DNA of 64,000 nucleotides from Minisyncoccota bacterium (GTDB lineage: Bacteria; Patescibacteriota; Minisyncoccia; Phycocordibacterales; UBA9973): NCBI GenBank assembly GCA_017991395.1, contig JAGOQQ010000004.1:32430-96429 (forward strand). Direction: 5' to 3'. The translations under genes and the position numbers were made by a program. A model generated the notes under the pieces. That model was not told where the DNA came from. It searched no databases and saw only the letters and a program-made list of their open reading frames with translations. Position 1 is the first letter of the stretch. Each line of letters opens with the position of its first letter. Shown one piece after another: positions 17,228 to 55,489 of the stretch.

Positions 17228-17346
17228 GTTAATCCTTATATCCCCATAGTACATATACTATGGGGATATTTAATATTGAAAACACATAAAACGATTAAGT
17301 ATACAAGCTTATCAACAATTGAAACATTTTGATATAATAAAATCAT

Positions 17347-18631: not shown

Positions 18632-18693
18632 ACTTAAAAGGCAACCTTAGGGTGCCTTTTTTATTTTATGCTAAATGATATACTAAATACTAT

Positions 18694-19137: not shown

Positions 19138-19157
19138 AACCCCTTAATTATAAATAA

Positions 19158-19727
19158 TTAAGGGGTTAGCATTCTTTTAACAAAAGTATTTTTATAAAAA
19201 TTATCCTTATATACTGCAAATACTAATAAATCTACATACACATTTTCTCCTGCACTTGTATGATTTTTAAATCTAGCTTCAATGGGCAGGCCAAGTTTCT
19301 CGAAAATCTCCATAGATTCATTATTGTTTTCGTGAACCTCGCAATAAACTTTCCTACATTTAAGTGTTTCGAATAAAAAATTACATCCAAGTATAAACAT
19401 TTCAGCTCCATAGTAATGCGACTTTCTGTATTTTTCAGAAACAAAGGTTGTTGTATATCCAGTTAAATTTTGCTTATTGAATCGATAAATCCAGCTTGTA
19501 CCTATCGCGCTGTTTCTGGTGTTCCGTGCAATAAAATGTACATATCTATCATTTTTATATGCTTTTGAGATTTCGTCATCAAGCTCGTTTAGTGTGCATT
19601 TTTTAGAATAGGACATGCAATTACTTTGAAACGTTTCCGTGTTTCTCCATTCAAGCAGAACAGGGAGATCATCTCTGTTGATTTCAGTCAGGATGAGTCT
19701 TTTTCCATTGATATTCAAATTTTCCAT
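19158..19727 (-). CDS. GNAT family N-acetyltransferase
   Basis: KRLILTEINRDDLPVLLEWRN N-terminal pattern, and GNAT core YGAEMFILGCNFLFETLKCRKVYCEV. Confidence 0.6.
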   Translation of the reverse strand: MENLNINGKRLILTEINRDDLPVLLEWRNTETFQSNCMSYSKKCTLNELDDEISKAYKNDRYVHFIARNTRNSAIGTSWIYRFNKQNLTGYTTTFVSEKYRKSHYYGAEMFILGCNFLFETLKCRKVYCEVHENNNESMEIFEKLGLPIEARFKNHTSAGENVYVDLLVFAVYKDNFYKNTFVKRMLTP

Positions 19728-19912
19728 AGTGTTACGTTTTAATATTTATATGACATAATTGACATAATGTCAAGTAATTATAATCGTATACTTTATTGAT
19801 CCAGTAGTTTTTTAATCGATAAACTTTTCACCCTTTTAGTTTTAATACCTTGTTGGTATACTGAATAGATATAATATTTAATAAAATATTTGGATTAAAT
19901 GCTTTATAAACA

Positions 19913-20263
19913 ATGGAAAGTATTGAAGAAAAAACATATAAGCTAAGTAGCACCGACAAATTTTTGATGGTTGTTTTTATTGTCTTAATTGGAAGTGCTT
20001 TTATCTCTAATTTTTACCATTTCTATATAAACAAGAATTACACATATATTATTGAAACAGAATGTGATTCAGAGTTTGAAACTTGCTATATAGGAGAGGA
20101 TGATGGAGGGCAATTTTTTTATAATGTCAAGACCATTAATGCATACGATTTTTCAGCGTGTAGTGATAATTCTTGCACAAATGAATGTACAAGTGGCTTT
20201 TTAGAATGCATCACCATTCCATGCGGGACAGATCCTGCTGATGTTTGTTCAAAGAATGAATAA
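19913..20263 (+). CDS. Small Cys-rich protein with N-terminal membrane anchor
   Basis: One transmembrane helix (FLMVVFIVLIGSAFI), then 10 Cys in 70 residues (ECDSEFETCY...CSDNSCTNECTSGFLECITIPCG). Confidence 0.4.
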   Translation: MESIEEKTYKLSSTDKFLMVVFIVLIGSAFISNFYHFYINKNYTYIIETECDSEFETCYIGEDDGGQFFYNVKTINAYDFSACSDNSCTNECTSGFLECITIPCGTDPADVCSKNE

Positions 20264-21107
20264 TAAAATGATTAAAGAAAATTTAGATTTTCATACTGAC
20301 ATCGTATATAGTGACGAAATTAAAGAACAGGTTGAATATCTGATGAAAAATCGTGATGCATTTGATTCGTATGTATATACCTCCGTTGATGAAATTCTTA
20401 ATACTAATAAGTCAGTGCAAATCGAATGCAAAAAAAAGGTTGATTATATACTCAATCCTAATATTAAAAGCAAGTTAAATGGTATTTTATTTAGACAAAT
20501 AAATACACCAAATTACGAAACTCGACGATTTCATCAAATTTGTGAGGGGTATGGAATCAAGCCTTTTTTTGTTCAGTATAAAGAGGATAAATTTACTTCA
20601 AATAACTCACTTAAACGAAGTTACGGAAAAATACCCTGTGTGGTTGGTACTGATAAAAATGGGCAGTACATTATAAACTATGTCAATGTAATAGATTTTA
20701 ATCAAAGTAACGGTAAGAAAATTTCTGATATAAAGACATTACAAGGTGAAAATTTAGTTGAACTACACAATAAACTCTTGTTAGATCAAATACCTTCAAT
20801 CCATGAAAGTTCACTTGTGGAGGCCTCACGATGGTTCAAGAACAATGGTGATTGTGCAGGAAAGTATTATCTCAATTTATTGCTAAATTTTCAGACAGAC
20901 ACTTTTCTATTTGATAATTTTTCATTAAATGGAGAAGAGGAAGTATTTACCAGGAACGTTTTTTTGCCAACATTGATTCACATTAGAAATACGTATGGAA
21001 TAAAACCTATCATTATTGCTTTGGAGCCAACGGAGATTGAGAATAATTTGTTTTGGATTGCTCAGACTCCGGAAGTTTATAGTATAATTAAAAAATACAA
21101 TGATTGA
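20241..21107 (+). CDS. Hypothetical protein
   Basis: Overlaps the upstream gene by 23 nt and the downstream kinase by 8 nt, so they form an operon. Confidence 0.4.
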   Translation: MFVQRMNNKMIKENLDFHTDIVYSDEIKEQVEYLMKNRDAFDSYVYTSVDEILNTNKSVQIECKKKVDYILNPNIKSKLNGILFRQINTPNYETRRFHQICEGYGIKPFFVQYKEDKFTSNNSLKRSYGKIPCVVGTDKNGQYIINYVNVIDFNQSNGKKISDIKTLQGENLVELHNKLLLDQIPSIHESSLVEASRWFKNNGDCAGKYYLNLLLNFQTDTFLFDNFSLNGEEEVFTRNVFLPTLIHIRNTYGIKPIIIALEPTEIENNLFWIAQTPEVYSIIKKYND

Positions 21108-22725
21108 AAATACCTGCACTTTATACGGGAGTGCATATCACACAATTGCATATTATTCTCATCTCGTGCCGGCATTTCTTATAGGAACTCTGGCTGTTTT
21201 GATTTTAATGAAAAACAGAAGTTCATTAATAATCACATTTTGTTTATTTACCGCAACATTTATCTTGTGGTTGCTTGGAGATCTTATAGCCTGGACATCG
21301 CCAAATTACAATCTGATTTCTGCCGTGTGGTCATCACTTGATTTACTCAACATACTTTTTTATATTTTTGGTGCATATTTTTTTACGACACTAGTCAGCG
21401 GAAAAGATGTCAGTTTGTGGATAAAGGTTGCTATTGTGCTGGTGACATTGCCTGCTTGGTATATTACAGTTTCAAATATTAGTATTTCTTCATTCTACTT
21501 GCCTCAGTGTGAAGCAATCAATAATACCTTTCTTACAAATTACAAGATATTAATTGAAGCACTTGTAGTCTTGTTCATTGTTATATATGGTTACATTAAA
21601 TCACGAAAACTGGAGCCAGTTAGAAGAAAAAAAGTTGCACTTGTTGCAGCTGGGCTTATTTTATTCTTTGCAACATTTTCTGTAACTGAATTTATAGCTA
21701 GTCAAACAGGTATATATGAAATAAACTTGTATAGCCTTTTCGTCCTACCTGTTTTCCTTGGAATGATTATTTATGCAACAGTTTCTATGAATATATTCCA
21801 ACTCAAAATTATTGGCGAGCAGGCAATGATTTATGTACTTTTGATTATGGTCGGCTCTCAAATGTTCATACTTGAGAATAGGGACAACAGAATACTTTCG
21901 GTTATTACATTCCTGTTATCATTATTCTTTGCATATGTGTTACTTCAGAGTTCACGAAGAGAAGCAATGGCAAAGCGACACATTGAAGAACTCGTATTCC
22001 AACTCGAAGAAGCAAACTCAAAATTGCATGATCTCGACAAGATGAAAACAGAATTCCTCTCACTCGCATCTCATCAGCTTCGTAGTCCACTTACCGCAAT
22101 CAAGGGTTATGCATCGATGCTTCTTGAAGGTTCGTATGGGCAAATCGTCCCAGAACAAAAAGTACCAGTAGATCGAATCTTTCAATCAAGTGTAAACTTG
22201 GCGCAAATCGTGGAAGACTTGCTTGATGTGTCAAAAATGGAACAAGGTGGAATGAAATTCGAAATGGCAGACGTGGACCTAGTGGGAATCTTGAAAGGTC
22301 TGACAAATGAGCTTCAGGTTTCTGCAAAAAGTCGAAATCTTGATCTTGTGTTCGAAACAAATCTTACAGAAGCAATTGTGGAAGTAGACTCAGTAAAAAT
22401 TCGTCAAGTGTTTGCAAACTATGTAGACAATGCACTCAAGTATACAGAAAAAGGAACAGTCAAAATCTCAATTGCAAAATCAGATGACGGAAAAAAGATT
22501 GTGGTTGGAGTCAAGGATTCAGGAATGGGTATTCCTCCAGAGATTATGAAAACACTCTTCAAAAAGTTTGAACGTGGAGAGGGCGGAAAGGTCAACGCGG
22601 GAGGTTCAGGACTTGGGCTATATCTCGCAAAAGAAATCGTCAACGCACACAAAGGACGCACTTGGGCTGAATCAGAAGGACGAGGCAAGGGAAGTACATT
22701 TTTTGTGGAGCTTAGTTTGAAATAA
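21100..22725 (+). CDS. Membrane-bound sensor histidine kinase (orphan; no response regulator nearby)
   Basis: N-terminal multi-transmembrane sensor region. HisKA H-box LSLASHQLRSPLTAIKGY. HATPase_c region with GGSGLGLYLAKEIVNAHKG. Confidence 0.8.
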   Translation: MIENTCTLYGSAYHTIAYYSHLVPAFLIGTLAVLILMKNRSSLIITFCLFTATFILWLLGDLIAWTSPNYNLISAVWSSLDLLNILFYIFGAYFFTTLVSGKDVSLWIKVAIVLVTLPAWYITVSNISISSFYLPQCEAINNTFLTNYKILIEALVVLFIVIYGYIKSRKLEPVRRKKVALVAAGLILFFATFSVTEFIASQTGIYEINLYSLFVLPVFLGMIIYATVSMNIFQLKIIGEQAMIYVLLIMVGSQMFILENRDNRILSVITFLLSLFFAYVLLQSSRREAMAKRHIEELVFQLEEANSKLHDLDKMKTEFLSLASHQLRSPLTAIKGYASMLLEGSYGQIVPEQKVPVDRIFQSSVNLAQIVEDLLDVSKMEQGGMKFEMADVDLVGILKGLTNELQVSAKSRNLDLVFETNLTEAIVEVDSVKIRQVFANYVDNALKYTEKGTVKISIAKSDDGKKIVVGVKDSGMGIPPEIMKTLFKKFERGEGGKVNAGGSGLGLYLAKEIVNAHKGRTWAESEGRGKGSTFFVELSLK

Positions 22726-42918: not shown

Positions 42919-44064
42919 ATGAAAATCGTATTCACTGGTGGAGGGACCGCAGGACATTTTTATCCAAACATTGCGATCGCTGAAAATTTCTACAATCTAG
43001 TTGAAGCTGAGAACATTGTTTCAGTTGAACTTTTTTATTTTTCTGATACTGAGTACGACAAGTCAGCACTATATGAAAACAAAATGAAATTTGTGAAAAT
43101 TCCTGCAGGAAAGCTTCGAGTAGGTGGAGGCGGGATTCAAAACTTTTTTGATATGTTTGTCACTGCATACGGAATACTCATTGCTATCATGAAGCTCTAT
43201 TCAGTGTATCCCGATGTGGTAATGGCAAAAGGTGGATACGCGAGTTTTCCTACGCTTTTTGCAGCACGCTTGCTCAAAATTCCAGTGGTCATTCACGAAT
43301 CAGATTCTACACCAGGACGCGTGAGTCAATGGGCAGGGAAGTTTGCACAACGAGTCGCAGTCTCATACGAAGACGCAGCAAAATTTTTTAATCCTGCAAA
43401 AGTTGCACTCACAGGACAACCTATTCGCGAAGAATTGAAGAGTCCTGCAAGTGAAGGCGTGTTCGATTTCTACAAACTCGACCCAACAGTTCCCGTAGTT
43501 CTTGTGCTTGGAGGTTCACAAGGTGCAGAAATCATCAACAACGCTCTTTTGGACGCACTTCCAACTCTTTTGCCAAAGTATCAAATCATTCATCAAACAG
43601 GCATGAACAATCTTGAGTCAGTCAAAGGACAAGCCGATATTACAATGGCAGACAGCAAAGATCTTCTTAGAGATCGATACCGAGCAATCGGATTTCTCAA
43701 CGTGCTTGGAATGCGGATGGCGGGCGGATCATCATCTGTGGTCATCACTCGTGCGGGTTCAACACTTTTTGAAATCGCATCATGGAATACTCCATGCATC
43801 GTGATTCCAATCACCACATCACAAGGTGATCATCAACGCAAAAATGCATACTCATATGCTCGTAGTGGTGGATGTGTCGTGATTGAAGAAGCCAATTTGA
43901 GTCCGGCGATTCTCGCACAAGAAGTAGAAAAAATTCTTGATGAAGAACCACGACGACTCAAAATGATTGAAGGTGCGAAAAGTTTTATTGGTGCAAACAA
44001 CGCAGGCCTTGTCATTGCACAAGAATTGCTCTCGATTGCACTGTCGCATGAGACGAAGGAATAA
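42919..44064 (+). CDS. murG: UDP-GlcNAc:MurNAc-pentapeptide-undecaprenol GlcNAc transferase
   Basis: MKIVFTGGGTAGHFYPNIAIAE is the MurG G-loop, and the C-terminal GT-B domain is present. Confidence 0.9.
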   Translation: MKIVFTGGGTAGHFYPNIAIAENFYNLVEAENIVSVELFYFSDTEYDKSALYENKMKFVKIPAGKLRVGGGGIQNFFDMFVTAYGILIAIMKLYSVYPDVVMAKGGYASFPTLFAARLLKIPVVIHESDSTPGRVSQWAGKFAQRVAVSYEDAAKFFNPAKVALTGQPIREELKSPASEGVFDFYKLDPTVPVVLVLGGSQGAEIINNALLDALPTLLPKYQIIHQTGMNNLESVKGQADITMADSKDLLRDRYRAIGFLNVLGMRMAGGSSSVVITRAGSTLFEIASWNTPCIVIPITTSQGDHQRKNAYSYARSGGCVVIEEANLSPAILAQEVEKILDEEPRRLKMIEGAKSFIGANNAGLVIAQELLSIALSHETKE

Positions 44065-44065
44065 G

Positions 44066-44195
44066 GGACGTTGTTCATAGAACATGGAGCGTAGAGCGTA
44101 AACATAAAACACTAGAACGTTGAGCACAAGAACCCTGGATTCAAGCCTCCCCTAGAGGGGAGGTGCCCGCAGGACGGAGGGGTAAAAAGTAATAA
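44066..44195 (-). repeat. GC-rich repeat element, copy F (reverse orientation), with shared extension
   Basis: Reverse complement reads ttttacccctccgtcctgcgggcacctcccctctaggggaggcttgaatccagggttcttgtgctcaacgttctagtg... Confidence 0.7.
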
Positions 44196-44204
44196 TGAGC
44201 GGCG

Positions 44205-44400
44205 GCCAAGGCCGCCGCTCATTTGCATCTCATCCCCTCCTTGTTGAGGAGGGGTGCCTGGAAGGCGGGGTGGTGTATTTCCCACCTCTCCTAGACAGGA
44301 GAGGAAGACACGAAGTGACTGGTGAGGTGGATTGAATACTCTATACAAATACACCGCCCCGTCGCTTCGCGCCACCCCTCCTTGAAAAGTAGGGGAAAAA
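44205..44400. ncRNA. Cluster of GC-rich nested hairpins (candidate structured RNA or repeat hotspot)
   Basis: GAGCGGCGGCCaaGGCCGCCGCTC; CCCCTCCttgttgaGGAGGGG; nested GGTGTATTT/CCCACCTC/CTCTCC...GGAGAG/GAGGTGG/AAATACACC; CCCCTCCttgaaaagtaGGGG. Confidence 0.35.
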
Positions 44401-44537
44401 ATACAACTAAATACTGAACCCATCTTCTTTCAGCTTTCAACTTTTAACTTTCAGCTCTCCCCATGTTCGCGTAAGTCAGCGTCTAGTCTGCGTTCAGTTA
44501 GCGTTTAATCTTTTTTGCGTTATAATTGAAAACACAG

Positions 44538-45857
44538 ATGAACAAACGCGTTTTTATCTACACCTTCAAGCTTCTTTCAATCATTGCACTTATTTCTATG
44601 AGTGCATTCTCTGTCATAGACAAAACTCCACGCACTCTCTTTGCCCAATCAGCAGACGAACTTCGCGACAAGATTGATCAACAAAACAAAGAAATCGAGC
44701 GTCTCGAAGCAGAGATCAAACTCTATTCGGCTCAGCTCGTTGAGACAGGCAAGCAGGCAAACTCTCTTCAAAACGAAGTCAAAGCACTCGACCTTTCTCG
44801 AAAAAAACTTCTGACCGACATCAAGGTCACCGAAAACAAAATAAACGGAAAGAATTTGCTTATCAAAAAACTCGAACTCGAAATTGGAAAGAAAAGTAAT
44901 TCTATCGATACCAACACGACCGCAATCCACGAAGGTATTCGCCGTGTCAACGAACGCGATCAAACAACTCTCATTGAAGCATTACTCAACAATGGCGACT
45001 TTTCTGATATATGGCGTGAAGTAGACGAAACACTTATGGTTCAAGAAAAAGTTCGCGGGCATATTGTCGTACTTCATGAGGTCAAAGGCGAACTCGAAGG
45101 AGACAAAGATGAAGAAACAAAAGCAAAACGCGAACTCGAAGGATTGAAAAGTGAACTTGGTGCACAGAAAAAAATTGTCGATCAGAACACTGCCGAAAAA
45201 AATCGCTTGTTGAAAGAAACAAAAAACCAAGAATCAGCATACAAAGCACTCGTTGCTCAAAAGCAAGCACTCAAAGCACAATTTCAAAAAGAAATCGACG
45301 AATTTGAATCAAAGCTTCAATACATTCTCGATCCAAGCAAGCTTCCAGATGGTGTAGTGTTTTCATGGCCACTCGACAATGTCTTTGTCACACAACGATT
45401 CGGTATCACATCTTCTTCAGGCCGTCTATACGCTTCTGGTTCGCACTCTGGTATCGACTTTAGAGCATCAGTCGGAACTCCGGTCCGCGCAATGGCAGAC
45501 GGTGTTGTGGAGGGAATTGGAGACACAGATCTATCGTGTCGTGGAGCATCATTTGGAAAATGGGTATTTATCCGATACAACAATGGACTTGCGAGTACAT
45601 ACGGACATCTTTCACTCGCAACAGCCCAAGAAGGTCAAAAGGTTCGTCGTGGCGACATTGTGGCGTATTCTGGAAACACTGGATACTCTACTGGTCCACA
45701 TCTTCACGTGTCAGTGTACGCAAGTGAAGCGGTGAAGGTGGATTCAAAGCCATCAATAAGCTGTAAGGGAAAAATTTTCCGTCAGCCTCTCGCAGCCCGC
45801 ACTGCATACCTCGACGCACTCCAATATCTTCCACGAAACTTCGCTTCGAAAGAATAA
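44538..45857 (+). CDS. M23 (LytM) metallopeptidase with N-terminal coiled coil (EnvC-like)
   Basis: HSGIDFRASVGTPVRAMADGVV, YGHLS, and GNTGYSTGPHLHVSVY (HxH). Long heptad-rich N-terminus, and the track start at 44526 is a TTG. Confidence 0.85.
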   Translation: MNKRVFIYTFKLLSIIALISMSAFSVIDKTPRTLFAQSADELRDKIDQQNKEIERLEAEIKLYSAQLVETGKQANSLQNEVKALDLSRKKLLTDIKVTENKINGKNLLIKKLELEIGKKSNSIDTNTTAIHEGIRRVNERDQTTLIEALLNNGDFSDIWREVDETLMVQEKVRGHIVVLHEVKGELEGDKDEETKAKRELEGLKSELGAQKKIVDQNTAEKNRLLKETKNQESAYKALVAQKQALKAQFQKEIDEFESKLQYILDPSKLPDGVVFSWPLDNVFVTQRFGITSSSGRLYASGSHSGIDFRASVGTPVRAMADGVVEGIGDTDLSCRGASFGKWVFIRYNNGLASTYGHLSLATAQEGQKVRRGDIVAYSGNTGYSTGPHLHVSVYASEAVKVDSKPSISCKGKIFRQPLAARTAYLDALQYLPRNFASKE

Positions 45858-45890: not shown

Positions 45891-46475
45891 ATGAAAAAAG
45901 ATTTTTCAATAAGAAATTTTTGGAGTTTGAACACTGATGAGACAGTGACAATTGGACTTCTTCAAAGAAATACTAATAGGGATATTGAAGTTTTCATGCC
46001 AATGAATTCACAGATGAAGGACATTGATTTGATTATTGCTAATACGAGAAATCAAAAAATGTTAACATTACAAGTTAAAGCAAGTAAAGCATATATACCT
46101 TCACCAGCTCAAAATAAACGTTTTGGTAATGGCTCAGGAACTTTTGTCTCAATCAAAGCAAATTCGCTAGAAAAATCTAATGCTGATTATTTTGTTTTTA
46201 CTTTGTATGGAATGTCTTCATCTGACAAAAACTTCAAAGGTAAAATAAGTGTCCAACCATATATTTTGATCATTTCTACTCGCGAATTGATAAAAAAAAT
46301 TAATTCATATAAAAGAAAATCGAATTCAGGTTCATACATATTTCATTTCTGGATAAACGCGGATAAAAACGAGATTTTCGACTGGCGAGATCTTAAAGAC
46401 AAGAATTCATATGGATATTACAGTGAATTCCTTGATGATTTGGGATTAAAGAATTTGATAAGACATTTATCTTAA
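45891..46475 (+). CDS. Hypothetical protein, possible PD-(D/E)xK nuclease fold
   Basis: DIDLIIANTRNQKMLTLQVK resembles a D...(E/Q)xK core. Weak, inference only. Confidence 0.3.
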   Translation: MKKDFSIRNFWSLNTDETVTIGLLQRNTNRDIEVFMPMNSQMKDIDLIIANTRNQKMLTLQVKASKAYIPSPAQNKRFGNGSGTFVSIKANSLEKSNADYFVFTLYGMSSSDKNFKGKISVQPYILIISTRELIKKINSYKRKSNSGSYIFHFWINADKNEIFDWRDLKDKNSYGYYSEFLDDLGLKNLIRHLS

Positions 46476-46539
46476 CTTCTCTTATATTTGACCACGCAAC
46501 TATCCGTATTTTACGGATAGTTCAATTTGTTCTTAATAT

Positions 46540-46860
46540 ATGACACAATACTACACAGTCATGTCATACTACGCTGGAATCGGTGCCAAACACAACAAAT
46601 ATCCGCAAATACCGGAACTCATTTTGGATTTTCATGGATACACCACGCTCGAATGCAAAGACGAACTCGACGCGCTCATCTCTGAAGGGAAGTTTGGGCA
46701 TATTCGCATAATTGTAGGGAAAGGAAAGAATAGCCAAGAAGGTCCAATCCTGCCGAATTTTGTACGAAATTACCTCACAGACCATCGTATCCGCTTCAAC
46801 CAATCAAAGCTCCAAGACGGCGGCGAAGGGGCATTGGAGGTGTATCTGGAGATTAGTTAA
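46540..46860 (+). CDS. Smr-domain protein
   Basis: LDFHGYTTLEC...GHIRIIVGKGKNSQEGPILPNFVRNYL is the Smr pattern. Confidence 0.7.
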   Translation: MTQYYTVMSYYAGIGAKHNKYPQIPELILDFHGYTTLECKDELDALISEGKFGHIRIIVGKGKNSQEGPILPNFVRNYLTDHRIRFNQSKLQDGGEGALEVYLEIS

Positions 46861-46910: not shown

Positions 46911-47561
46911 GTGAGACTTAAAGATACCAATATTAAAGACAGACCACGAGAAAAACTCGAAAAATATGGTACCAGCAAGCTTACTGATGCTGAACTTTTA
47001 GCGATTTTACTACGAACAGGTACCAAAGATTTAAATGTATTAAAATTATCTCAAAAAATTTTACAGAAATTTGGAAATGAAAAGTTTATAGATATAAGCA
47101 TAGATGAATTAAAAACTATTCATGGATTAGGTACAGCTAAGGCTTGTGAGATTATTGCTTGTTTTGAGCTTGGGAAACGCATGTTGAAAGGTAAAAAAAC
47201 ATCAATTATACTTACTCCTAAAGATGTTTGGGAGCGAATGGAAGATATTAGAGGAAGTAAAAAGGAACATTTTGTTGTTTTTTACTTAGATAGTAGGAAT
47301 CAAGAAATAAATAGAGAAATTATATCGGTTGGAACTCTAAATGAGAGCTTAGTTCATCCACGAGAAGTTTTTGAAGGTGCAATAAAGCATAATGCTGCAG
47401 GAATAATATTGGCACACAATCACCCATCTGGTGACACAGAGCCATCGGAAGCAGATATTGAAATTACAAAAAAATTAATCCATGCTGGAAAAATTTTAGA
47501 TATTAAAATTATTAGTCATATTGTTGTAACAAATAATTCTTTTTTACAACTAGAATTTTAA
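46911..47561 (+). CDS. radC: RadC-like JAB/MPN-domain protein
   Basis: HhH N-terminus LTDAELLAILLRTGTKD. JAMM motif HNHPSGDTEPSEAD. GTG start. Confidence 0.85.
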   Translation: MRLKDTNIKDRPREKLEKYGTSKLTDAELLAILLRTGTKDLNVLKLSQKILQKFGNEKFIDISIDELKTIHGLGTAKACEIIACFELGKRMLKGKKTSIILTPKDVWERMEDIRGSKKEHFVVFYLDSRNQEINREIISVGTLNESLVHPREVFEGAIKHNAAGIILAHNHPSGDTEPSEADIEITKKLIHAGKILDIKIISHIVVTNNSFLQLEF

Positions 47562-47574: not shown

Positions 47575-48960
47575 ATGAATAAAGAAACCCGTATAAAAAA
47601 TATAGCTGAAATTATTAAGAGAGATAAGGAGCATGGCAGACAGGATATCCCATGGAAAGATAAGCTGGAGCCGATGTCAGTTTATTTAATTCCTTTAGAG
47701 TACCTAGTTTACAATAAATACAATGGGCGTATTTTAAGTAGAACTAAGTCATTAGAAATGCAGGGTTACGAAATTGATGCTGCTTCTAAGGAAGGCAAGG
47801 TTTTAATAGAAAAGCTTCTCATGGATTCAAATCCATCTAGAAATAGACAGACACTTGAAAGCATTAATAAAATTGGGCAGGAAAAAGTTGGTATAATTAC
47901 TCGAGATGGAATCATAATTGATGGTAATAGACGCGCGATGTTATTAAATAAATCAGGTAAATATGATTATTTTAAAACCGTTGTTTTAGATGTTACTTTA
48001 GAAGAAAATCCATTAGAAATTGAGAAACTTGAAACTACTTACCAAATGGGAGAAGATGAAAAATTAGGTTACAAAGCAATAGAGAAATATTTAAAATCAA
48101 AACTACTACACAAAAGAAACATATCTGTTGATAAAATTGCCGATTGGATGGGAGAGGATAATTCTAAAATAAAAGAGTACTTGGACGTTATGAATGTTAT
48201 GGACGAGTACCTAGAATATCTTGGATGCAAGGGAATATATACTCAATTAGATGAGAGAGAGGATCAATTCATAAGTCTTACAAGATGGCTTGATACTTTT
48301 TATGGAGAGAGTAGCTCGAAAGGATTCGATGGATATACAGATAGTGATGTTGATGACCTTAAAATTATATCATTTGATTACATAAGAGCTATCTATGAAG
48401 GTAAGGAATTTCGTAATATTGGGTATGGTTTAAGAGATAATCATTTTTTTGGGGATAGAAAAATTTGGGAAAGTTTTAGAGACTTTCATTTTAAAAAAGT
48501 TGATTTAATAAAAGACAAAGAATCGAAAATTGATTTTAAATCTGATAATCTTGAAGCTTATCTAAAAGACAGAGATTCTAGGTACTATCAAAATACAAAA
48601 AATAATGAAGGCGAAAGTTTTTTAGAAGAAAATATTAGAATTCATAAACAGCAACTTCAGAACAAAAAATCAGCCAACGAACCTTCTAAGCTTGTAAGTA
48701 CGGCAAGTGATGCGTTAAATGCAATCAATCAAAAGAATTCTTCATTTTCAAGTAGTGATGTTTCTAACGGTCTTGAGAGGATAAGCGAAAAGGTTATAAA
48801 CATGATTGCGGTAAATTCTCCCGACAAGATTATATTTCAAGTCGTTAAAATGCTAAAATCAATTCCTTTAGGTAAGGATAGTACTCTTAAAAAGCATATG
48901 TTAGTAAAAATAAAAGAGATTGAAAAGATTGTTGATCTTATTAAAAAAGATATTGAGTAA
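47575..48960 (+). CDS. ParB/Sulfiredoxin-fold (ParB-like nuclease/NTPase) domain protein
   Basis: NPSRNRQTLESINKIGQEKVGIITRDGIIIDGNRRAMLL matches the ParB N-terminal domain pattern, and a long C-terminal extension is present. Confidence 0.6.
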   Translation: MNKETRIKNIAEIIKRDKEHGRQDIPWKDKLEPMSVYLIPLEYLVYNKYNGRILSRTKSLEMQGYEIDAASKEGKVLIEKLLMDSNPSRNRQTLESINKIGQEKVGIITRDGIIIDGNRRAMLLNKSGKYDYFKTVVLDVTLEENPLEIEKLETTYQMGEDEKLGYKAIEKYLKSKLLHKRNISVDKIADWMGEDNSKIKEYLDVMNVMDEYLEYLGCKGIYTQLDEREDQFISLTRWLDTFYGESSSKGFDGYTDSDVDDLKIISFDYIRAIYEGKEFRNIGYGLRDNHFFGDRKIWESFRDFHFKKVDLIKDKESKIDFKSDNLEAYLKDRDSRYYQNTKNNEGESFLEENIRIHKQQLQNKKSANEPSKLVSTASDALNAINQKNSSFSSSDVSNGLERISEKVINMIAVNSPDKIIFQVVKMLKSIPLGKDSTLKKHMLVKIKEIEKIVDLIKKDIE

Positions 48961-48965
48961 AAGGA

Positions 48966-50939
48966 ATGAATAATATTATATATATCGATATAGATAACTC
49001 AACATCTTGTTTCAAATTAACTGGTGATATAATAAATATTACCATAAATACAAGATTAGTTTTTTCACTTAAGAGATTCGGTTATAGTTCCATTGATGAT
49101 TGCATATTAATACCTTTTAACCAGAAAACAAAAATTAAAATATTACAAGACTTAATTTCTTTGCTCGAAAAATTTAATTTTAATGCAAAGCTAACTAACG
49201 AAACAAGTAGTGAAGTATTTAGTTTTGAGCAGGAAAAAAAGTTATTTACTATTTTTTCGAAAAATGCTAAAAATATTCGCAATAATAAATTTGAAGATAA
49301 TCCCGAACTTGTAGAGAATTTTAATAAATTTCAAAGTGTTTTGAAGGAAAAATTGGTACGTCCGCTTTATCCACTGCAATTACTGTCAGCTTTTCATATG
49401 GCTTTTTCACAAAATTCATGTAATTTTGCTGTACCTGGTGCTGGAAAAACTTCAATTGTATATGGAGCGTATGCGTATCTAAATAGCCTGCCTGTAGACG
49501 ACCCAAAGCACGTCAATAAAATACTAGTAATTGGACCTTTGTCATCTTTTTCACCATGGGAAAAAGAGTTCAAAGAATGTTTTGGCAATAAACCATCATC
49601 CCAGAGATTATCTGGTGATAATACAATTTTAAGGTCTCATAAGGAGCAGCATCTTTTTTCTGGTAACCCCGCGGAACTGACACTAATAAATCACGGGGGT
49701 GTTGATAATTTACAATATGAAATTATTTCTTTCTTAAAGAAAAATAAAACTATGGTTGTGGTTGATGAAGCACATAGAATAAAAAATCCTGAAGGTGTTT
49801 GGGGGAAGAGTGTTGTCGAAATATCAAAAGAAGCGCAGGCTAGAGTAGTTTTAACTGGAACACCAGTTCCCAATGGTTATGAAGATTTATTTAATTTATT
49901 TCAATTTCTATATCCATATAAATATAAGGATATATTAAAATTACATTTCTTAAATCTTGTAGATATGACTATGAACTCATCTACTGACAGTGATAGAGTT
50001 AAGGAATTTATAGAAAACATCTCACCATATTTTATTCGAATTAAGAAAAAAGATTTAAAGTTACCTCCAGTTAATGAAATATCAATTAGTGTTACTATGG
50101 ATTTATTACAAAGAGAAATTTATGATTTCGTAGAAAACAAATATATCAAACAGTTTAAAAATAATAGTTCTGCTGCTGTTAAAGATTTATTAAACAAGGC
50201 TAAATTAATACGTTTAAGACAGGCTTCTACGAATCCATCTCTTCTTCTTAAGCCAATCTCAGAAAATCTAGATCCAGATGATTATGGGCAAGGAATTGAT
50301 TTTAATAAAGATATGCCAGACGAGTTTCAAGATGATTCACATATTATTTCTAAAATAATGAAGTACGCAAATAATGAAACCCCTATGAAATTTATTGCGA
50401 TTAAAAAATTGCTAGAAGAAAAAATTTTTGTTGGTAACGGTAAAGTTATTATTTGGACTATTTTCATTCAAAATGCCAAAGAGCTTCAAAATTTTCTTTT
50501 GAAGAGTAATATAAAATCTAAATTATTAATAGGCGAAATCGTACAAAGCGACCGTGAGGTTATTATCGATATGTTTAATAATCCTCTGAATACAGAATTT
50601 CAGGTTATTATAGCTAATCCATTTTCTGTATCTGAATCAATCTCCCTTCATAAAGGTTGTCATAATGCTATTTACATGGAACGCGATTATAATTGTTCTA
50701 ATTTTTTACAATCTAAAGATAGAATACACCGATATGGTTTATCTCAGAATCAAGAAACTAATTATTATTATTTAATATCTTCTGATTCTATTGATGAAAT
50801 TATTAACGAAAAACTAGATTTAAAAGTTAAAAGAATGGAAAAAATAATTGATGATGATATCCCACTTTTTTCGCGTATAAACGATTCTGATGAGACTGAC
50901 CTAATTAAAGCTTTGTTAGAAAGTTATTCTAAAAATTAA
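48966..50939 (+). CDS. SNF2-like SF2 helicase
   Basis: Walker A FAVPGAGKTS, motif II VVVDEAHRIKN, motif III LTGTPVPN. C-terminal helicase lobe present. Confidence 0.8.
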   Translation: MNNIIYIDIDNSTSCFKLTGDIINITINTRLVFSLKRFGYSSIDDCILIPFNQKTKIKILQDLISLLEKFNFNAKLTNETSSEVFSFEQEKKLFTIFSKNAKNIRNNKFEDNPELVENFNKFQSVLKEKLVRPLYPLQLLSAFHMAFSQNSCNFAVPGAGKTSIVYGAYAYLNSLPVDDPKHVNKILVIGPLSSFSPWEKEFKECFGNKPSSQRLSGDNTILRSHKEQHLFSGNPAELTLINHGGVDNLQYEIISFLKKNKTMVVVDEAHRIKNPEGVWGKSVVEISKEAQARVVLTGTPVPNGYEDLFNLFQFLYPYKYKDILKLHFLNLVDMTMNSSTDSDRVKEFIENISPYFIRIKKKDLKLPPVNEISISVTMDLLQREIYDFVENKYIKQFKNNSSAAVKDLLNKAKLIRLRQASTNPSLLLKPISENLDPDDYGQGIDFNKDMPDEFQDDSHIISKIMKYANNETPMKFIAIKKLLEEKIFVGNGKVIIWTIFIQNAKELQNFLLKSNIKSKLLIGEIVQSDREVIIDMFNNPLNTEFQVIIANPFSVSESISLHKGCHNAIYMERDYNCSNFLQSKDRIHRYGLSQNQETNYYYLISSDSIDEIINEKLDLKVKRMEKIIDDDIPLFSRINDSDETDLIKALLESYSKN

Positions 50940-50942
50940 TTC

Positions 50943-52337
50943 ATGAAAGCATACCAAACAAAAATAGAAGTTTTAGAACAATCAAGAATTATACTAGATA
51001 AATCTTTGCGTGAAGTAATACCATCTAATGAAATAGAAGAAATTGAGAGAAAAATTTACGAATATAAAAACAAAAGAAAAGGATATTTAGGAGAATTAAT
51101 TGAATGGTATGTGTTTGATAAAAAACCAGACGGCTTAAGTCAGGCTGATTTTAATGTTGCTGGAGTAGAGTTAAAAGCCACACCTCTTAAAAAACACGCA
51201 AAAAGCATTTATTCGTCTAAAGAAAGATTGGTTTTTTCAATGATTAATTATGATGAGATTGTAAACGAGGAATGGAATTCAAGCTCATTTCTTAAAAAGA
51301 ATAAAGTCGTACTTCTGATGTTTTATCTTTGGATACAAAGTCAAAGTATTATAGATTATGAATTTAAGTTTGTTCATTTGCTTGATTTGCTCAACGATTT
51401 GTCTGAGGAAGATGTTTTTCAGATTCAGAAAGATTGGGAATATATAGTAGCAAAAATTAGAAGAGGAGAAGCGCATTTACTTTCAGAAGGAGATACCTAT
51501 TACCTTGGCGCTTGTACTAAGGCCGCGAATAGTCAGGTGGTACGAGATCAACCAATGAGTCGTAGACCAGCAAAACCAAGAGCTTTTTCTTTTAAACAGC
51601 AGTATATAAATTATTTAATTCAGACAAAACTTCTTGGAAAGAAAGCGAGTACAGATTCGATTTTTAATAAACAAAGAAGACTAGAAACAATAGAAGATGT
51701 GGTTAAGGAAAAGTTTGCGCCTTTTATCGGAAAAACAGATAGAGAGATACTTTTTAAGTTAAACTCGGATTTAGGGAAGAAATCAAAGAGTTACAAAAGA
51801 CTTATAGTTAATCGTATTCTTGGTGTTAAATCAAGTCACATTGAAGAATTAGAAAAAGCAAACATAACACTTAAAGTTATTACATTAGAGTACACAGGAA
51901 ATTTAAAAGAATCTATTTCATTTCCAGCTTTTGACTATAAAGATTTGTTAAATGATTTATGGTATGACGAAGAAGAAGAGATAATGACAGATTTTCATTT
52001 GCAACTTGAAACAAAAAAGTTTTTATTCGCGGTCTTCCAAAAACAAAAAGATAATGATGATATTGTTTTAAAGAAAACAATGTTTTGGAATTTCCCCATG
52101 AAAGATATAGGTGAAGCTGAAAAAGTTTGGCAAAAAACTGTTGATTGTATAAAAGAAGGGAATTATGATGAGTTGCCCAAAATTAAGGATAGCTTTGTTG
52201 CTCATGTTCGCCCACACGGAAAAGACTCAACAGATACAATAGAGACCCCTCAAAAAACCCAGGAAATGAAACGCTGTTTTTGGATTAACGCTAAATATAT
52301 ACAGCATGCCATAGAAAACGATAAAGATCAAGATTGA
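50943..52337 (+). CDS. Sau3AI/MutH-family restriction endonuclease (probable GATC specificity)
   Basis: KGYLGELIEWYVF and DFNVAGVELKATP align to the MutH catalytic segments KGWIGVLLEIWLG and DFAALGVELKTIP. Two-domain size as in Sau3AI. Confidence 0.7.
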   Translation: MKAYQTKIEVLEQSRIILDKSLREVIPSNEIEEIERKIYEYKNKRKGYLGELIEWYVFDKKPDGLSQADFNVAGVELKATPLKKHAKSIYSSKERLVFSMINYDEIVNEEWNSSSFLKKNKVVLLMFYLWIQSQSIIDYEFKFVHLLDLLNDLSEEDVFQIQKDWEYIVAKIRRGEAHLLSEGDTYYLGACTKAANSQVVRDQPMSRRPAKPRAFSFKQQYINYLIQTKLLGKKASTDSIFNKQRRLETIEDVVKEKFAPFIGKTDREILFKLNSDLGKKSKSYKRLIVNRILGVKSSHIEELEKANITLKVITLEYTGNLKESISFPAFDYKDLLNDLWYDEEEEIMTDFHLQLETKKFLFAVFQKQKDNDDIVLKKTMFWNFPMKDIGEAEKVWQKTVDCIKEGNYDELPKIKDSFVAHVRPHGKDSTDTIETPQKTQEMKRCFWINAKYIQHAIENDKDQD

Positions 52338-52368
52338 TCAATTACATTGAATCTGATAGAATCTTAAT

Positions 52369-53640
52369 ATGAAAAAGATTAAGGTCGTTGAACTATTTGC
52401 AGGAGTTGGTGGTTTTCGTATTGGACTCGATAGGGCTAGTAAAAAGGACATGCAATTTGAAACTGTATGGAGTAGTCAATGGGAGCCTGGGGCAATTACT
52501 CAACATGCTTCCGAAATCTACAAAGCACGATTTGGAACTGAGAATCATTCCTGTGAAGACATCCAAGAAGTTATTGAGAAGAATTTTAAAGAAATTCCAA
52601 ATCATGATTTACTAGTTGGTGGTTTTCCATGTCAGGATTATTCAGTTGCAAGGACTGCAAATCAGGCAAAGGGTATTTTCGGAAAAAAGGGTGTATTGTG
52701 GTGGTCAATTCACAAAATTTTAGAAAAGAAGGGAAAAGATTCTCCTAATTTTTTAATGCTTGAAAATGTTGATCGATTATTAAAGTCTCCATCTGCACAA
52801 AGAGGACGGGATTTTGCTGTTATGCTTGCATCACTTTCGGATTTGGGATATGCGGTTGAATGGAGAGTTGTAAATGCTGCTGATTATGGATTTCCTCAAC
52901 GAAGGAGACGGGTATTTATATTGGGCTACAAGAAAGGAAGCAAAATTTATAATGAAATTAAAATTGAAAACGACAAAAAAAATTGGATTTTCAAGAAGGG
53001 GGTATTAGTAAAAGCTTTTCCTCTTACTAAAGAAATAGGCATACTTAAAGACTTTGACCTAAAAGGAGAGCTCCAAGAAATATCAGTAGAATTTTCTAAA
53101 TCAGGACCTTCAAAAAGCCCCTTTGAGGTTTCAGGAATAATGTTCGATAGACATGTATATACAGTGAAAACAACCCCCGAACACCATGACAAAAAAGTTG
53201 TACTAAATGATTTAATCATATCCAGCGAAAAAGAAATACCACGAGAATATTATATAGATCCCGGAGATTTAAAACGTTGGCACTATCTTAAAGGAGGGAA
53301 GAAAGAGGGGCGTAAATCAAAGGATGGTTTTGAGTATGAATATGCAGAAGGACCAATGGTGTTTCCAGATCCTCTAGATAAGCCCTCACGTACAATTGTT
53401 ACAGGAGAAGGTGGAACTTCTCCCTCGCGTTTTAAGCATGTCATAAAAACAAAATCTGGGAAACTTCGAAGGTTAACACCCGTTGAACTTGAACGCTTAA
53501 ATATGTTTCCTGATAATCACACAAAGTTTATGCATAATGGTAAAATTACACCAGACAACAAAAGAGCTTTCATAATGGGTAACGCTTTAGTGGTTGGTGT
53601 GATTGAGCGTATAGGCAAGGCATTATTAAAGCAAATCTAA
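52369..53640 (+). CDS. DNA (cytosine-5)-methyltransferase
   Basis: Motif I ELFAGVGGF, motif IV GGFPCQDYS, motif VI LMLENV, motif VIII FPQRRRRVFILG. Confidence 0.9.
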   Translation: MKKIKVVELFAGVGGFRIGLDRASKKDMQFETVWSSQWEPGAITQHASEIYKARFGTENHSCEDIQEVIEKNFKEIPNHDLLVGGFPCQDYSVARTANQAKGIFGKKGVLWWSIHKILEKKGKDSPNFLMLENVDRLLKSPSAQRGRDFAVMLASLSDLGYAVEWRVVNAADYGFPQRRRRVFILGYKKGSKIYNEIKIENDKKNWIFKKGVLVKAFPLTKEIGILKDFDLKGELQEISVEFSKSGPSKSPFEVSGIMFDRHVYTVKTTPEHHDKKVVLNDLIISSEKEIPREYYIDPGDLKRWHYLKGGKKEGRKSKDGFEYEYAEGPMVFPDPLDKPSRTIVTGEGGTSPSRFKHVIKTKSGKLRRLTPVELERLNMFPDNHTKFMHNGKITPDNKRAFIMGNALVVGVIERIGKALLKQI

Positions 53641-53692: not shown

Positions 53693-53739
53693 ATTTCCAT
53701 GTATAATAAAACCATATCAGTTAATATTTTTATATGGAT
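53693..53739 (+). promoter_or_regulatory. 45-bp direct repeat, copy 1; extended -10 promoter (TGTATAAT) plus 5' UTR
   Basis: atttccatgtataataaaaccatatcagttaatatttttatATGga is identical to 54283-54327 apart from one extra T. Confidence 0.55.
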
Positions 53740-54237
53740 TCAAAAGAATATTACTATAAAAGATTTCGAGAACAGTTTGACGAATGGGTAAAAAAGACTC
53801 AAGCACACGAGCATCAAGGAGAGGGTATTTATATTTCTATTCAGAATTTAAAGCCCGAATATTTATCTCATATTTCAAAAGAAGATTACATGTTATTTCA
53901 TTGCGCATTAGCATGTACAGTGTTAATTGATCAAGTTATGTATACTCATTTCAAGCAAGATTATTTGAAATTCCAACAAATGACACTATATCCCAAAATT
54001 GAATATGGCATCACTAATATAAATGTTAATCCATGGGTAATTACACATAGCGGAATAGGTTTAACTACACTAGAGCATTTTTTAGAGTTTTTTGTTTCTG
54101 ATTTGAAAGAGTTTTACAATAAGTGCAAATTTGAGGTTGCAAATTGGGACAACTTAAAAGATTCCATACTAAATGATAAAGATTGTATTAGTGGATCTCA
54201 TGGAGAAATCTTGAAGACTATTTTATCAAAATACTAA
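53734..54237 (+). CDS. Hypothetical protein
   Basis: ORF flanked by the two direct-repeat promoter copies. Confidence 0.4.
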   Translation: MDSKEYYYKRFREQFDEWVKKTQAHEHQGEGIYISIQNLKPEYLSHISKEDYMLFHCALACTVLIDQVMYTHFKQDYLKFQQMTLYPKIEYGITNINVNPWVITHSGIGLTTLEHFLEFFVSDLKEFYNKCKFEVANWDNLKDSILNDKDCISGSHGEILKTILSKY

Positions 54238-54282: not shown

Positions 54283-54327
54283 TTCCATGTATAATAAAAC
54301 CATATCAGTTAATATTTTTTTATGGAA
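54283..54327 (+). promoter_or_regulatory. 45-bp direct repeat, copy 2 (promoter plus 5' UTR of the DoxX gene)
   Basis: atttccatgtataataaaaccatatcagttaatatttttttATGga. Confidence 0.55.
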
Positions 54328-54687
54328 ACACTTCTCATTGTTTTGCAACTTGTAGCGGGGCTTGGAATTTATAATGTGTGGCTTCTTCGTCCTCAAATGG
54401 CAACAGAATATCGCGGAAAAGGAGCACGTACTCTCAAAGATGAATTTCGCGCGTATGGACTGCCGGATGGAGCACTTTATGTTGTGGGAACTATCAAACT
54501 CGTATCTGCTACCGCACTTTTGGCTGGAATATGGTACCCATCATTCATCATTCCTTCTGCTGCTGTTTTGACGATTATGATGATCGGCGCAATTTCTATG
54601 CATGTCAAAATAAATGATCCGATAGAGAGATCTCTTCCGGCATTCATTATGCTCTCAGCTGTGCTCGGAATTTTGTATTTAGTTTAA
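54322..54687 (+). CDS. DoxX-family small membrane protein
   Basis: Four transmembrane helices; DoxX-like LQLVAGLGIYNVWLL...VVGTIKLVSATALLAG. Confidence 0.55.
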   Translation: METLLIVLQLVAGLGIYNVWLLRPQMATEYRGKGARTLKDEFRAYGLPDGALYVVGTIKLVSATALLAGIWYPSFIIPSAAVLTIMMIGAISMHVKINDPIERSLPAFIMLSAVLGILYLV

Positions 54688-54760: not shown

Positions 54761-55489
54761 TTGTATAACATACATGATATTATTTTAAGTATGAATGATG
54801 ATGAACTAAAAATTTCTGAACAAGCTTTTTTGTGGGTTAAAAATAATGAGAAATACATTATTGAAAAATTTACAAGTGGAGTAGAGTATGTTCCAGATAT
54901 TCAACCAACAACACTTTTCATGGCTGGCTCACCAGGTGCAGGAAAAACAGAAATCTCTAAGCGATTTATGGAAAGGTGGAAACAAAAACCAATACGAATT
55001 GATGCTGATGAAATCAGAGTTTTGTGTCCTGGCTATTCAGGAGTGAATGCACATCTTTTTCAAAAAGCTGCAAATAAAGGTGTAAATATTTTGTACGATT
55101 ATGCACTTGGGAAAGATTTAAATATTATTCTTGATGGTACTTTTGCATACGGAGGAGCGGAGGTGAATATTCAACGATCTATTAAGCACAAGCGAAAAGT
55201 TGAAATATTCTTTGTATACCAAAATCCACTACAAGCTTGGGAGTTTACTAAAAAGCGTGAAATAGAAGAATCAAGAAGGGTTTCGAAAGATATATTTATT
55301 AATGCATATTTAAAATCCCAAGAGAATGTCAATCAAGCAAAGATAAATTTTAATACTCAAATTGAGTTACATCTGATTATTAAAGATTTTGAAAAGGACT
55401 TGGAACAAATTGAATTTAACATACAATCAGTTGACCCATACCTTAAAAAAGAGTACACTGAGGAAACATTGAGGGAAATACTTATATGA
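54761..55489 (+). CDS. Zeta-toxin-like P-loop kinase
   Basis: Walker A FMAGSPGAGKTEISKRF and a zeta/AAA-kinase-like core, about 240 aa. Confidence 0.55.
   Translation: MYNIHDIILSMNDDELKISEQAFLWVKNNEKYIIEKFTSGVEYVPDIQPTTLFMAGSPGAGKTEISKRFMERWKQKPIRIDADEIRVLCPGYSGVNAHLFQKAANKGVNILYDYALGKDLNIILDGTFAYGGAEVNIQRSIKHKRKVEIFFVYQNPLQAWEFTKKREIEESRRVSKDIFINAYLKSQENVNQAKINFNTQIELHLIIKDFEKDLEQIEFNIQSVDPYLKKEYTEETLREILI

Follow-up and report, generated by a model that had tools for sequence, protein, structure and literature searches.

What does a gene for a ParB-like protein do directly beside a gene for an SNF2-family ATPase, immediately upstream of a restriction endonuclease and its methyltransferase? 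The question is raised by positions 47575-50939 of a 64-kb stretch of DNA from a Minisyncoccota bacterium (contig JAGOQQ010000004.1 of assembly GCA_017991395.1), the whole of which is called the window below. An earlier note on this DNA had described two open reading frames (ORFs), 47575-48960 and 48966-50939, separated by a gap of 5 bp. It had proposed that their products act as a nucleotide-dependent DNA clamp and a translocase which could license the downstream nuclease. Both ORFs, the gap and the motifs quoted there were all found in place. We conclude, with a probability of about 0.8, that the pair makes up the core of a defence system which is widespread and linked to restriction-modification (R-M), and that it is the functional unit of such a system. 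The region 47575-53640 is best taken as a Sau3AI-linked variant of this system and not as a plain type II R-M system beside two unrelated genes.

The ParB-like and SNF2 ORFs are taken as real genes since they are long ORFs in DNA of 29-33% GC, have many homologues in the database (at least 1809 for the ParB-like protein and at least 3319 for the SNF2 protein) and show a low ratio of nonsynonymous to synonymous substitution rates (dN/dS).

Fold and conserved motifs of the two proteins

The ParB-like protein found no match in Pfam (E<=10), NCBIfam (E<=1), PADLOC or the PDB sequences, the last searched both by phmmer and with a profile, and neither Pfam ParBc PF02195 nor any curated ParB sequence model matched it. 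As the sequence libraries could not make the call, it rests on structure prediction and Foldseek. An AlphaFold2 (AF2) model built from 31 homologues reached a predicted local distance difference test score (pLDDT) of 89 and a predicted template modelling score (pTM) of 0.81. When this model was compared with the PDB by Foldseek, ranks 1-34 were all ParB, Noc, KorB, Spo0J or pNOB8-ParB structures, and for ranks 1-33 the E-values ran from 8e-5 to 2e-2, with probabilities of 0.99-1.00 and a TM-score of up to 0.60 on the target. The alignments extend over 210-300 columns and span the N-domain and the helix-turn-helix (HTH) domain of truncated ParB/Noc/KorB structures. The predicted structure confirms the ParB/Srx fold that had been proposed, and places the protein as a very divergent member of the ParB/HTH type. 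The earlier note had gone further and likened it to the DUF262/DndB type. This is the wrong subfamily, because DUF262, GmrSD and SspE structures are missing from the top 50 PDB matches of the model and PF03235 (DUF262) does not match the protein at E<=10. The motif is DGNRR, not DGQQR, although its D-G start does resemble the latter.

Three conserved segments are located where boxes I, II and III of ParB are, as judged by eye from their position in the fold. Within YNKYNGRI the residues Y46, N47, K48, N50, G51, R52 and I53 are invariant in the family alignment. All of D116, G117, N118, R119 and R120 (DGNRR) are invariant in the 31 sequences, and the motif is retained in homologues of 27-38% identity. 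The third segment, LETxYQMGEDEK, has L152, E153, T154, Q157, M158, G159, D161, E162 and K163 invariant. The HTH region of the model consists of the helices 185-192 and 196-216, and the C-terminal 240 amino acids are helical and match nothing. An alignment by hhalign of the family profile with B. subtilis Spo0J was not significant (E 0.34). In this same non-significant alignment the region of GIIIDGNRRAMLL is paired with GERRFRA, the box III-like segment with LLENLQRED, and the HTH segment IADWMGEDNSKIKEYL with LAKRLGKSRPHIANHL of Spo0J.

Every source name shown for the homologues is 'hypothetical protein', and none of them carries a Pfam domain. Homologues 55-70% identical occur across bacteria of the candidate phyla radiation (CPR), Bacteroidota and others, and the 100% match comes from a metagenome-assembled genome (MAG) of Candidatus Pacebacteria. 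In a profile search of 1.84 billion representative proteins the family comprised 1543 clusters at 50% identity, 887 of them at E<=1e-10. The 136 species with relatives in a scan of one genome per species include CPR bacteria, Bacteroidota, Proteobacteria, Firmicutes and others, and among 2.9 million viral contigs only two carried the family. Three loci encode a further, divergent ParB-like paralogue with 34-40% identity to the query, a few kb from the main operon (L017 6319-7590, minus strand; L065 6349-7617, minus strand; L075 14343-15602, plus strand).

The second protein is a true SNF2 ATPase, as its sequence indicates, with all motifs intact and a dedicated family of its own. It scored 100.4 bits against PF00176 (cut-off 24.9) and 31.6 bits against Helicase_C (cut-off 23.5), which bears out the SNF2-like helicase of the earlier note along with its DEAHRIKN and LTGTPVPN motifs. 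In 32 family members, with identities down to 45%, the motifs VPGAGKT, DEAHxIK, LTGTPxPN and QSxDRIHRxG are invariant. The residues concerned are V156, P157, G158, G160, K161 and T162 of the Walker A motif; D267, E268, A269, H270, I272 and K273 of motif II; L296, G298, T299, P300, P302 and N303 of motif III; and Q582, S583, D585, R586, I587, H588, R589 and G591 of motif VI. The Walker A motif had been called atypical. PGAGKTS is an ordinary motif for superfamily 2 (SF2), unusual only when set against the eukaryote-style SNF2 motif I, and it is not degenerate because VPGAGKT is invariant throughout the family. The N-terminal 150 amino acids were modelled with a pLDDT of 81, and this model had no significant fold match in the PDB, the best being an aIF1-like structure at E 0.03.

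Pairing of the genes and their partners

For the comparison of gene neighbourhoods 80 loci were fetched from the one-genome-per-species scan. By ORF-level BLAST the ParB-like gene is followed by the SNF2 gene in every locus with enough sequence, so that the synteny in other genomes, on which the earlier note had made its idea depend, holds in every related locus examined. The distance from stop to start is -8 to +18 nt with a median of -1 in all 73 of the 73 non-redundant loci, which come from many phyla. The two genes also diverge together: the distance matrices of the two proteins are correlated with a Mantel r of 0.87, a value reached by 0 of 999 permutations. Translation of the two genes is coupled, and they are passed on together as a single unit. 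Even at 27-38% identity the pairing is retained, in the Streptococcus prophage Javan191, in plasmids of L. reuteri, Exiguobacterium and Enterococcus, and in the loci L090, L091 and L092. No ParA gene is among the genes flanking the pair in the window, and the downstream neighbour of the ParB-like gene is SNF2 in 73/73 loci; parS sites were not searched for. Against the two closest loci (L005 and L006) both core genes have a dN/dS of 0.06-0.08, with a dS of about 1, near saturation, and are thus under strong purifying selection.

On the Exiguobacterium plasmid (L088 9136-11709) the SNF2 partner has 857 amino acids and an N-terminal PLD-like domain (PF13091, 26.4 bits, just under the cut-off of 27), and it is followed by a protein of 1117 amino acids with bacterial Ig repeats. 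This may be a form of the system with the nuclease fused to the motor.

The partners of the pair come in two forms. In form A, found in 58/78 loci, the operon consists of a C5 methylase of about 570 amino acids, the ParB-like gene, the SNF2 gene and a protein of about 325 amino acids with a C-terminal NOV_C domain (DUF3883, a PD-(D/E)xK domain). In 66/68 loci the fourth gene and the SNF2 gene share about 17-26 nt. A subclade of six loci (L068, L071-L074 and L076; for example L068 13256-14296) has a version of it with a ThsB-like TIR domain (PF13676 1e-12; PADLOC ThsB 3e-45). Over their first 190 or so amino acids the NOV_C proteins align as homologues with the TIR proteins (hhalign probability 99.6, E 9e-24), and this stretch is therefore a common adaptor domain to which different effectors are attached. 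It is in itself unusual for a system linked to a methylase to have a TIR executioner.

A C5 methylase lies within 9 kb of the pair in 76/78 loci. Vsr genes adjoin the methylase in several of them, which fits real formation of 5-methylcytosine (5mC). The family's own methylase (L001 8289-9989 and homologues) has PPCVxFS in place of the usual FPCQ of motif IV, and a C-terminal extension of about 190 amino acids without a Pfam match, a candidate docking domain for the pair. It is 21% identical to the methylase of the window by BLAST, over the core only. Profile-profile alignment shows the two to be homologous C5 methylases, the target-recognition region being uninformative. Integrases, replication genes or primases often adjoin the system in other loci; with these alongside, and with the low GC content of the island in the window, the system is horizontally mobile.

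Form B, to which the window belongs, is seen in eight loci without the family's own methylase (the window, L005, L006, L034, L037, L069, L090 and L091). All eight have a nuclease of the MutH fold and a methylase that is M.Sau3AI-like, with 44-77% identity among the methylases. The nuclease is long and Sau3AI-like (464-485 amino acids) in the window, L006, L037 and L091, a short single domain of MutH size (248-266 amino acids) in L005, L034 and L090, and part of a fusion of 1001 amino acids in L069. These loci are scattered in the ParB-like tree, with ParB-like identities of 34-87%. An adaptor-NOV_C gene is still present in L034, L037 and L069, and the arrangement without the adaptor gene is shared by the window with L005, L006, L090 and L091. 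Since the core genes have a dN/dS of 0.06-0.08 within the clade of the window, the pair is maintained there without the adaptor-effector. Other substitutes were seen in three loci only: L074 has a BglII-like nuclease and a C5 methylase, Javan191 a DpnII/BanI-like nuclease, and L. reuteri type III Mod/Res genes.

In the window the endonuclease scored 414 bits against NF040973 (cut-off 300; 9e-124), with PF02976 at 5e-24 and PADLOC REase_II at 6e-80, and the catalytic D...ELK motif is present (ADFNVAGVELK). The methylase matches PF00145 at 3e-64 and PDLC03329 at 8e-163. By their sequences these two genes are a complete type II R-M system of the Sau3AI type, with predicted GATC specificity. The block RadC, ParB-like, SNF2, Sau3AI and Dcm is common to the window and L006 at 75-87% identity, while the flanks differ. 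In L005, of the same clade, the methylase is 57% and the nuclease 30% identical, and the pair stays at 85-87%. The observed/expected ratio (O/E) of GATC is 0.68 in the window, the second lowest of the 4-mer palindromes after GGCC (0.63). In the flanks of L005, L006, L034, L037 and L069 it is 0.61, the lowest of them, and in the pooled flanks of 65 loci it is 0.79, only the third lowest. The under-representation of GATC in the window and in the flanks of the form B loci is consistent with active GATC restriction. The low GGCC of the window may reflect a second, HaeIII-like restriction activity in the host.

The proposal that the pair serves a nuclease stood in part. A nuclease or other effector and a methylase are consistently found alongside, but the nuclease of the window is a complete Sau3AI-type enzyme and not the commonest partner. 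Relatives most often have a dedicated methylase of the C5 type upstream, and downstream a protein that joins the adaptor to NOV_C or TIR.

Mechanism, competing explanations and known systems

We slightly favour a mechanism in which the pair is a clamp, gated by a nucleoside triphosphate (NTP), and a translocase that together license a nuclease against unmethylated DNA. The methylase would mark self DNA, and the ParB-like protein would bind DNA through its HTH and close into a clamp on binding of the NTP, like ParB, Noc and KorB. The SNF2 motor would translocate along the same DNA, and clamp and motor would convey the nuclease to unmethylated sites or license it there. In form A the same signal could fire a TIR effector instead. 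NTP binding, clamp formation, read-out of methylation and the anti-phage function are what we infer from the fold and the gene context. The logic may be likened to MutS and MutL activating a latent MutH, or to type I, type III and DISARM enzymes, with a ParB-type switch as the sensor. MutH of E. coli is a latent nickase until MutL, an activator of the clamp type, acts on it, and because MutH is latent without its activator, the short MutH-like partners of form B are suggestive of licensing. The characterised Sau3AI enzyme depends on a pair of sites and on DNA looping, and in the window, where the enzyme is Sau3AI-like with two domains, a translocase and a clamp could supply the communication between sites.

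Several points weigh against this mechanism. With no significant sequence similarity to ParB, the nucleotide-pocket assignments depend on one predicted structure and alignment by eye. A type II system that consists of a Sau3AI-type enzyme and its methylase is sufficient in itself, so a licensing module is not obviously needed, and the window is without the adaptor-effector that most relatives carry. The two families of partner methylases would require either generic sensing of methylation or a shared target. The co-divergence of the two core proteins may reflect co-inheritance only, and their physical interaction is presumed. Of the distant relatives, one stands beside a type III system (Mod/Res), one beside an uncharacterised HTH protein of 869 amino acids, and one has no methylase among its listed features, in a PLSDB annotation that is incomplete.

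That the C5 methylase is the most constant neighbour (76/78) while the effector varies, from NOV_C and TIR to the MutH type and a PLD-like domain fused to SNF2, could also mean that the pair serves the methylase. Clamp and motor would then help the C5 methylase to reach or move along DNA, a role similar to the help that DNA methyltransferases receive from HELLS/DDM1 in eukaryotes, or the pair would be a KorB-like, DNA-sliding regulator that times when methylase and nuclease are expressed relative to each other. The structural matches include KorB, which is a transcriptional clamp dependent on CTP, and the methylase extension of about 190 amino acids could be a docking domain. We nevertheless regard this as unlikely: the overlap of the adaptor-effector gene with SNF2 in 66/68 loci points to an executioner role, TIR effectors would make no sense for a methylation helper, distant relatives occur with a type III system or without a listed methylase, and bacterial C5 methylases of type II systems are known to work unaided. 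It is similarly improbable that the pair is a self-contained defence or mobile-element module, merely co-located with R-M genes and uncoupled from the Sau3AI genes here. Defence genes are known to cluster, the pair has several different neighbours, and the Sau3AI-type system is complete by itself. However, in the window the genes are separated by gaps of 3-5 nt on the same strand of a single low-GC block, and the five-gene block is common to L006 while the flanks differ. Eight loci spanning 34-87% ParB-like identity have the same methylase family with a MutH-type nuclease, a C5 methylase is present in nearly all loci, and the short MutH-like nucleases (about 250 amino acids; L005, L034 and L090) resemble a latent nickase that needs an activator.

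The variant of the window has no adaptor-effector and its pair is nonetheless strongly selected, so the ParB-like protein might itself be the effector, a ParB/Srx nuclease or NTPase carried by the SNF2 motor, with R-M as a second layer of defence. DNase and NTPase activities are reported for members of the ParB/Srx superfamily such as Osa and RK2 ParB, as cited in PMC12839542 and PMC10853773. We give this little credence, as the CTP-switch proteins that match its structure best have an HTH and are not nucleases, and most loci have a separate, dedicated effector. Finally, the pair of the window could be the decaying remnant of a four-gene system that has lost its methylase and effector. A six-frame search of the 64-kb window detected no lost adaptor-effector and no remnant of the family's own methylase, which fits such a loss. 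We reject decay, however, as highly improbable on the dN/dS of 0.06-0.08 (dS about 1); both ORFs and all catalytic motifs are intact, and the same adaptor-less arrangement is found in L005, L006, L090 and L091.

Returning to the clamp and translocase that license a nuclease, the parts can be compared with known systems. The ParB-like protein has in common with canonical ParB, Noc and KorB the N-terminal fold followed by an HTH (Foldseek probability 1.0), the place of the arginine-rich box II (here DGNRR, there GERR) and, putatively, the box I- and III-like segments. It differs by the lack of significant sequence similarity and of an adjacent ParA, and it has a helical tail of 240 amino acids where canonical ParB has a small dimerisation domain. 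Canonical ParB functions in segregation, whereas the genomic setting here is SNF2, methylase and nuclease. CglI and NgoAVII combine a C5 methylase with an R nuclease and an N helicase-like ATPase of the SF2 type that is needed for cleavage. The present system has the same three parts, with the nuclease and the SF2-type ATPase as separate proteins, but the families of the nuclease (PLD and B3-like) and of the ATPase differ and there is no ParB-like component in CglI or NgoAVII. The Dpd (7-deazaguanine) locus is likewise linked to DNA modification and includes a ParB-superfamily protein, the ParB-like DpdB, and an SNF2 helicase, DpdE; here there is no DpdA (tRNA-guanine transglycosylase), there are no preQ0 genes, and the DpdE matches are partial (E 7e-15). 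By analogy with MutS-MutL-MutH, a clamp would activate a latent MutH-type GATC endonuclease at a distance, dependent on methylation and aided by a helicase, and form B does use MutH-fold nucleases, some of them single-domain and of MutH size. Unlike that system, this one has no MutS or MutL homologue, and the methylation is on C5 of cytosine and not the N6-adenine methylation of Dam.

The closest working likeness, alongside the methylation-linked SNF2 systems, is Menshen (NsnABC), in which a ParB-superfamily DNA sensor and an ATPase transducer work with a third protein that has a conserved N-domain and polymorphic C-terminal effectors (PMC12065111). Both follow the three-part logic of sensor, ATPase and adaptor-effector with swapped effectors. 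NsnA is of the DUF262 type with a ParBDB domain, in contrast to the ParB/HTH type here, NsnB is an ABC ATPase and not SNF2, and Menshen has no methylase. PADLOC, a library expected to include Menshen, has no model of any system that matches the ParB-like protein. Class 1 DISARM (DrmD SNF2 with a methylase and DrmABC) and the BREX-related and Hma systems with SNF2-nuclease fusions are also multi-gene and methylation-linked, with an SNF2 motor and a nuclease, and HmaA carries a NOV_C nuclease domain (PMC11232893) as does the form A effector. The present system differs from all of these: it has no DrmA/B/C, no DUF1156/DUF499 and no PglZ/BrxC, its nuclease is separate with an adaptor domain, and the ParB-like protein is obligatory.

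The PADLOC matches of the SNF2 protein are limited to ZorD, DpdE, DrmD, BrxH and DrmA. The models of ZorD, DpdE, DrmD and SCO1167 cover only the SNF2 ATPase core and score far under their cut-offs, DrmD and ZorD giving partial matches to the generic core at E 1e-12 to 1e-24. DISARM was rejected because a PADLOC scan of nine neighbouring proteins gave no DrmA, DrmB (DUF1998) or DrmC (PLD), with a partial DrmD match (E 1e-12). Type I Zorya was rejected since ZorD covers the ATPase core only (amino acids 158-426 of 657) and no ZorA, ZorB or ZorC was among the neighbours scanned, and Hma since the SNF2 protein of 657 amino acids has no NOV_C and the methylase is of the C5 type. Menshen and Dpd were likewise set aside. 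The locus belongs to none of these five systems, since it lacks the partners that define them and their models hit generic cores or nothing at all.

Surroundings of the pair and implications

The pair lies in a block of low GC content at 45.9-53.7 kb (0.29-0.33, compared with about 0.40 in the flanks), every gene of which is on the plus strand. The spacings between RadC, ParB-like, SNF2, the Sau3AI-type endonuclease and the methylase are 13, 5, 3 and 31 nt, and the 5-nt spacer between the ParB-like and SNF2 genes reads AAGGA. The features of the block are collected in Table 1. Searches for promoters and terminators over 45.5-54.8 kb yielded fewer sites than were obtained in shuffled controls, and are therefore uninformative on the limits of the operon. 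Scans of the entire 64-kb window with Rfam (gathering threshold) and for tRNA and tmRNA gave no match.

Table 1. Genes and motifs in the low-GC block of the window (aa, amino acids; REase, restriction endonuclease; MTase, methyltransferase)
Feature	Position	Strand	Basis
Unassigned ORF, 194 aa, without family match	45891-46475	+	
Smr	46540-46860	+	
RadC (UPF0758_N and JAB domain)	46911-47561	+	Pfam PF04002 4e-40, PF20582 6e-25
ParB-like protein, 461 aa, ATG start	47575-48960	+	AF2 model and Foldseek
ParB-like domains: predicted ParB/Srx N-domain about aa 20-160; HTH about aa 169-216; all-helical C-terminal half aa 220-461			
ParB-like YNKYNGRI, box I-like, aa 46-53	47710-47733	+	Position in fold and by eye
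ParB-like GIIIDGNRRAMLL, putative equivalent of box II (GERR-type, phosphate-binding), aa 112-124	47908-47946	+	
ParB-like LETTYQMGEDEK, box III-like helix, aa 152-163	48028-48063	+	
ParB-like IADWMGEDNSKIKEYL, helix-turn-helix segment, aa 188-203	48136-48183	+	
SNF2-family ATPase, 657 aa, ATG start	48966-50939	+	PF00176 1.3e-28, PF00271 2e-7
SNF2 domains: family-specific N-terminal alpha/beta domain aa 1-130, then two RecA-like lobes			
SNF2 Walker A / motif I PGAGKTS, aa 157-163	49434-49454	+	
SNF2 motif II DEAHRIKN, aa 267-274	49764-49787	+	
SNF2 motif III LTGTPVPN, aa 296-303	49851-49874	+	
SNF2 motif VI QSKDRIHRYG with arginine fingers, aa 582-591	50709-50738	+	
Sau3AI-family type II REase, two MutH-like domains	50943-52337	+	NF040973, PF02976, PADLOC REase_II
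M.Sau3AI-like C5 cytosine DNA MTase (Dcm)	52369-53640	+	PF00145, PADLOC MTase_II PDLC03329

Upstream of the pair, the ORF of 194 amino acids found no match in Pfam, NCBIfam or PADLOC. By eye its segment 'DIDLII...LQVKASK' resembles a PD-(D/E)xK nuclease motif, and a 43%-identical homologue lies in L005, 3 kb upstream of the ParB-like gene; from its sequence it may be another nuclease linked to the island. A terminator-like hairpin follows it at 46498-46522. In L006 RadC occupies the same position and is 84% identical, with Smr and the flanks not common to both. RadC may be part of the cassette or a conserved neighbour at the point of insertion.

Directly after the methylase an ORF of 167 amino acids (53734-54237, plus strand) has as its sole match a weak, sub-threshold one to AbiEi (E 0.007). 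Just past the R-M genes lies a zeta-toxin family kinase (54761-55489, plus strand; PF06414 3e-31), and the ORF upstream of it (54322-54687) looks like a small membrane protein and not an epsilon antitoxin. Elsewhere in the window, a comparatively GC-rich gap of 460 nt at 44065-44525 has murG on one side and an M23 peptidase gene on the other. It holds an ORF of 103 amino acids rich in Gly, Pro and Ser on the minus strand (44112-44423). Rfam gave no match in it at the gathering score, and a permissive scan of 43900-44700 only sub-threshold chance matches; the gap could be an undescribed structured RNA or a mere spacer. A second long stretch of low GC (0.30-0.345) at 12000-22000 may be another horizontally acquired island.

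The full-text literature searched, which covers few subscription journals, yielded no account of these genes as a system, so the novelty is provisional. The family falls into a blind spot of defence annotation and of ParB-CTPase surveys because Pfam, NCBIfam and PADLOC miss the ParB-like protein. A recent survey of the ParB-CTPase fold starts from Pfam (10.1101/2025.10.10.680097), and for this reason cannot have seen it.

As a tentative idea, and a less probable one than the licensing of a nuclease, the system may represent a new class of methylation-guided immunity, in which a ParB-type NTP-gated clamp and an SNF2 translocase activate interchangeable executioners, namely GATC nucleases of the MutH/Sau3AI type, NOV_C nucleases and TIR NADases. 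If so, it would be the first immune use of a classical ParB/HTH clamp, as opposed to DUF262, and one methylation-reading sensor would drive either DNA cleavage or abortive infection. The C5 methylase of about 570 amino acids that belongs to the family would then target the same (GATC-type) site as M.Sau3AI. If the mechanism holds, the nucleotide-switch principle of ParB would reach beyond chromosome segregation and transcription control into immunity. The system would offer a compact and modular set of sensor, motor, swappable effector and methylase in which to study how methylation is read out, and in which to ask how this read-out reaches a nuclease or a TIR suicide effector.

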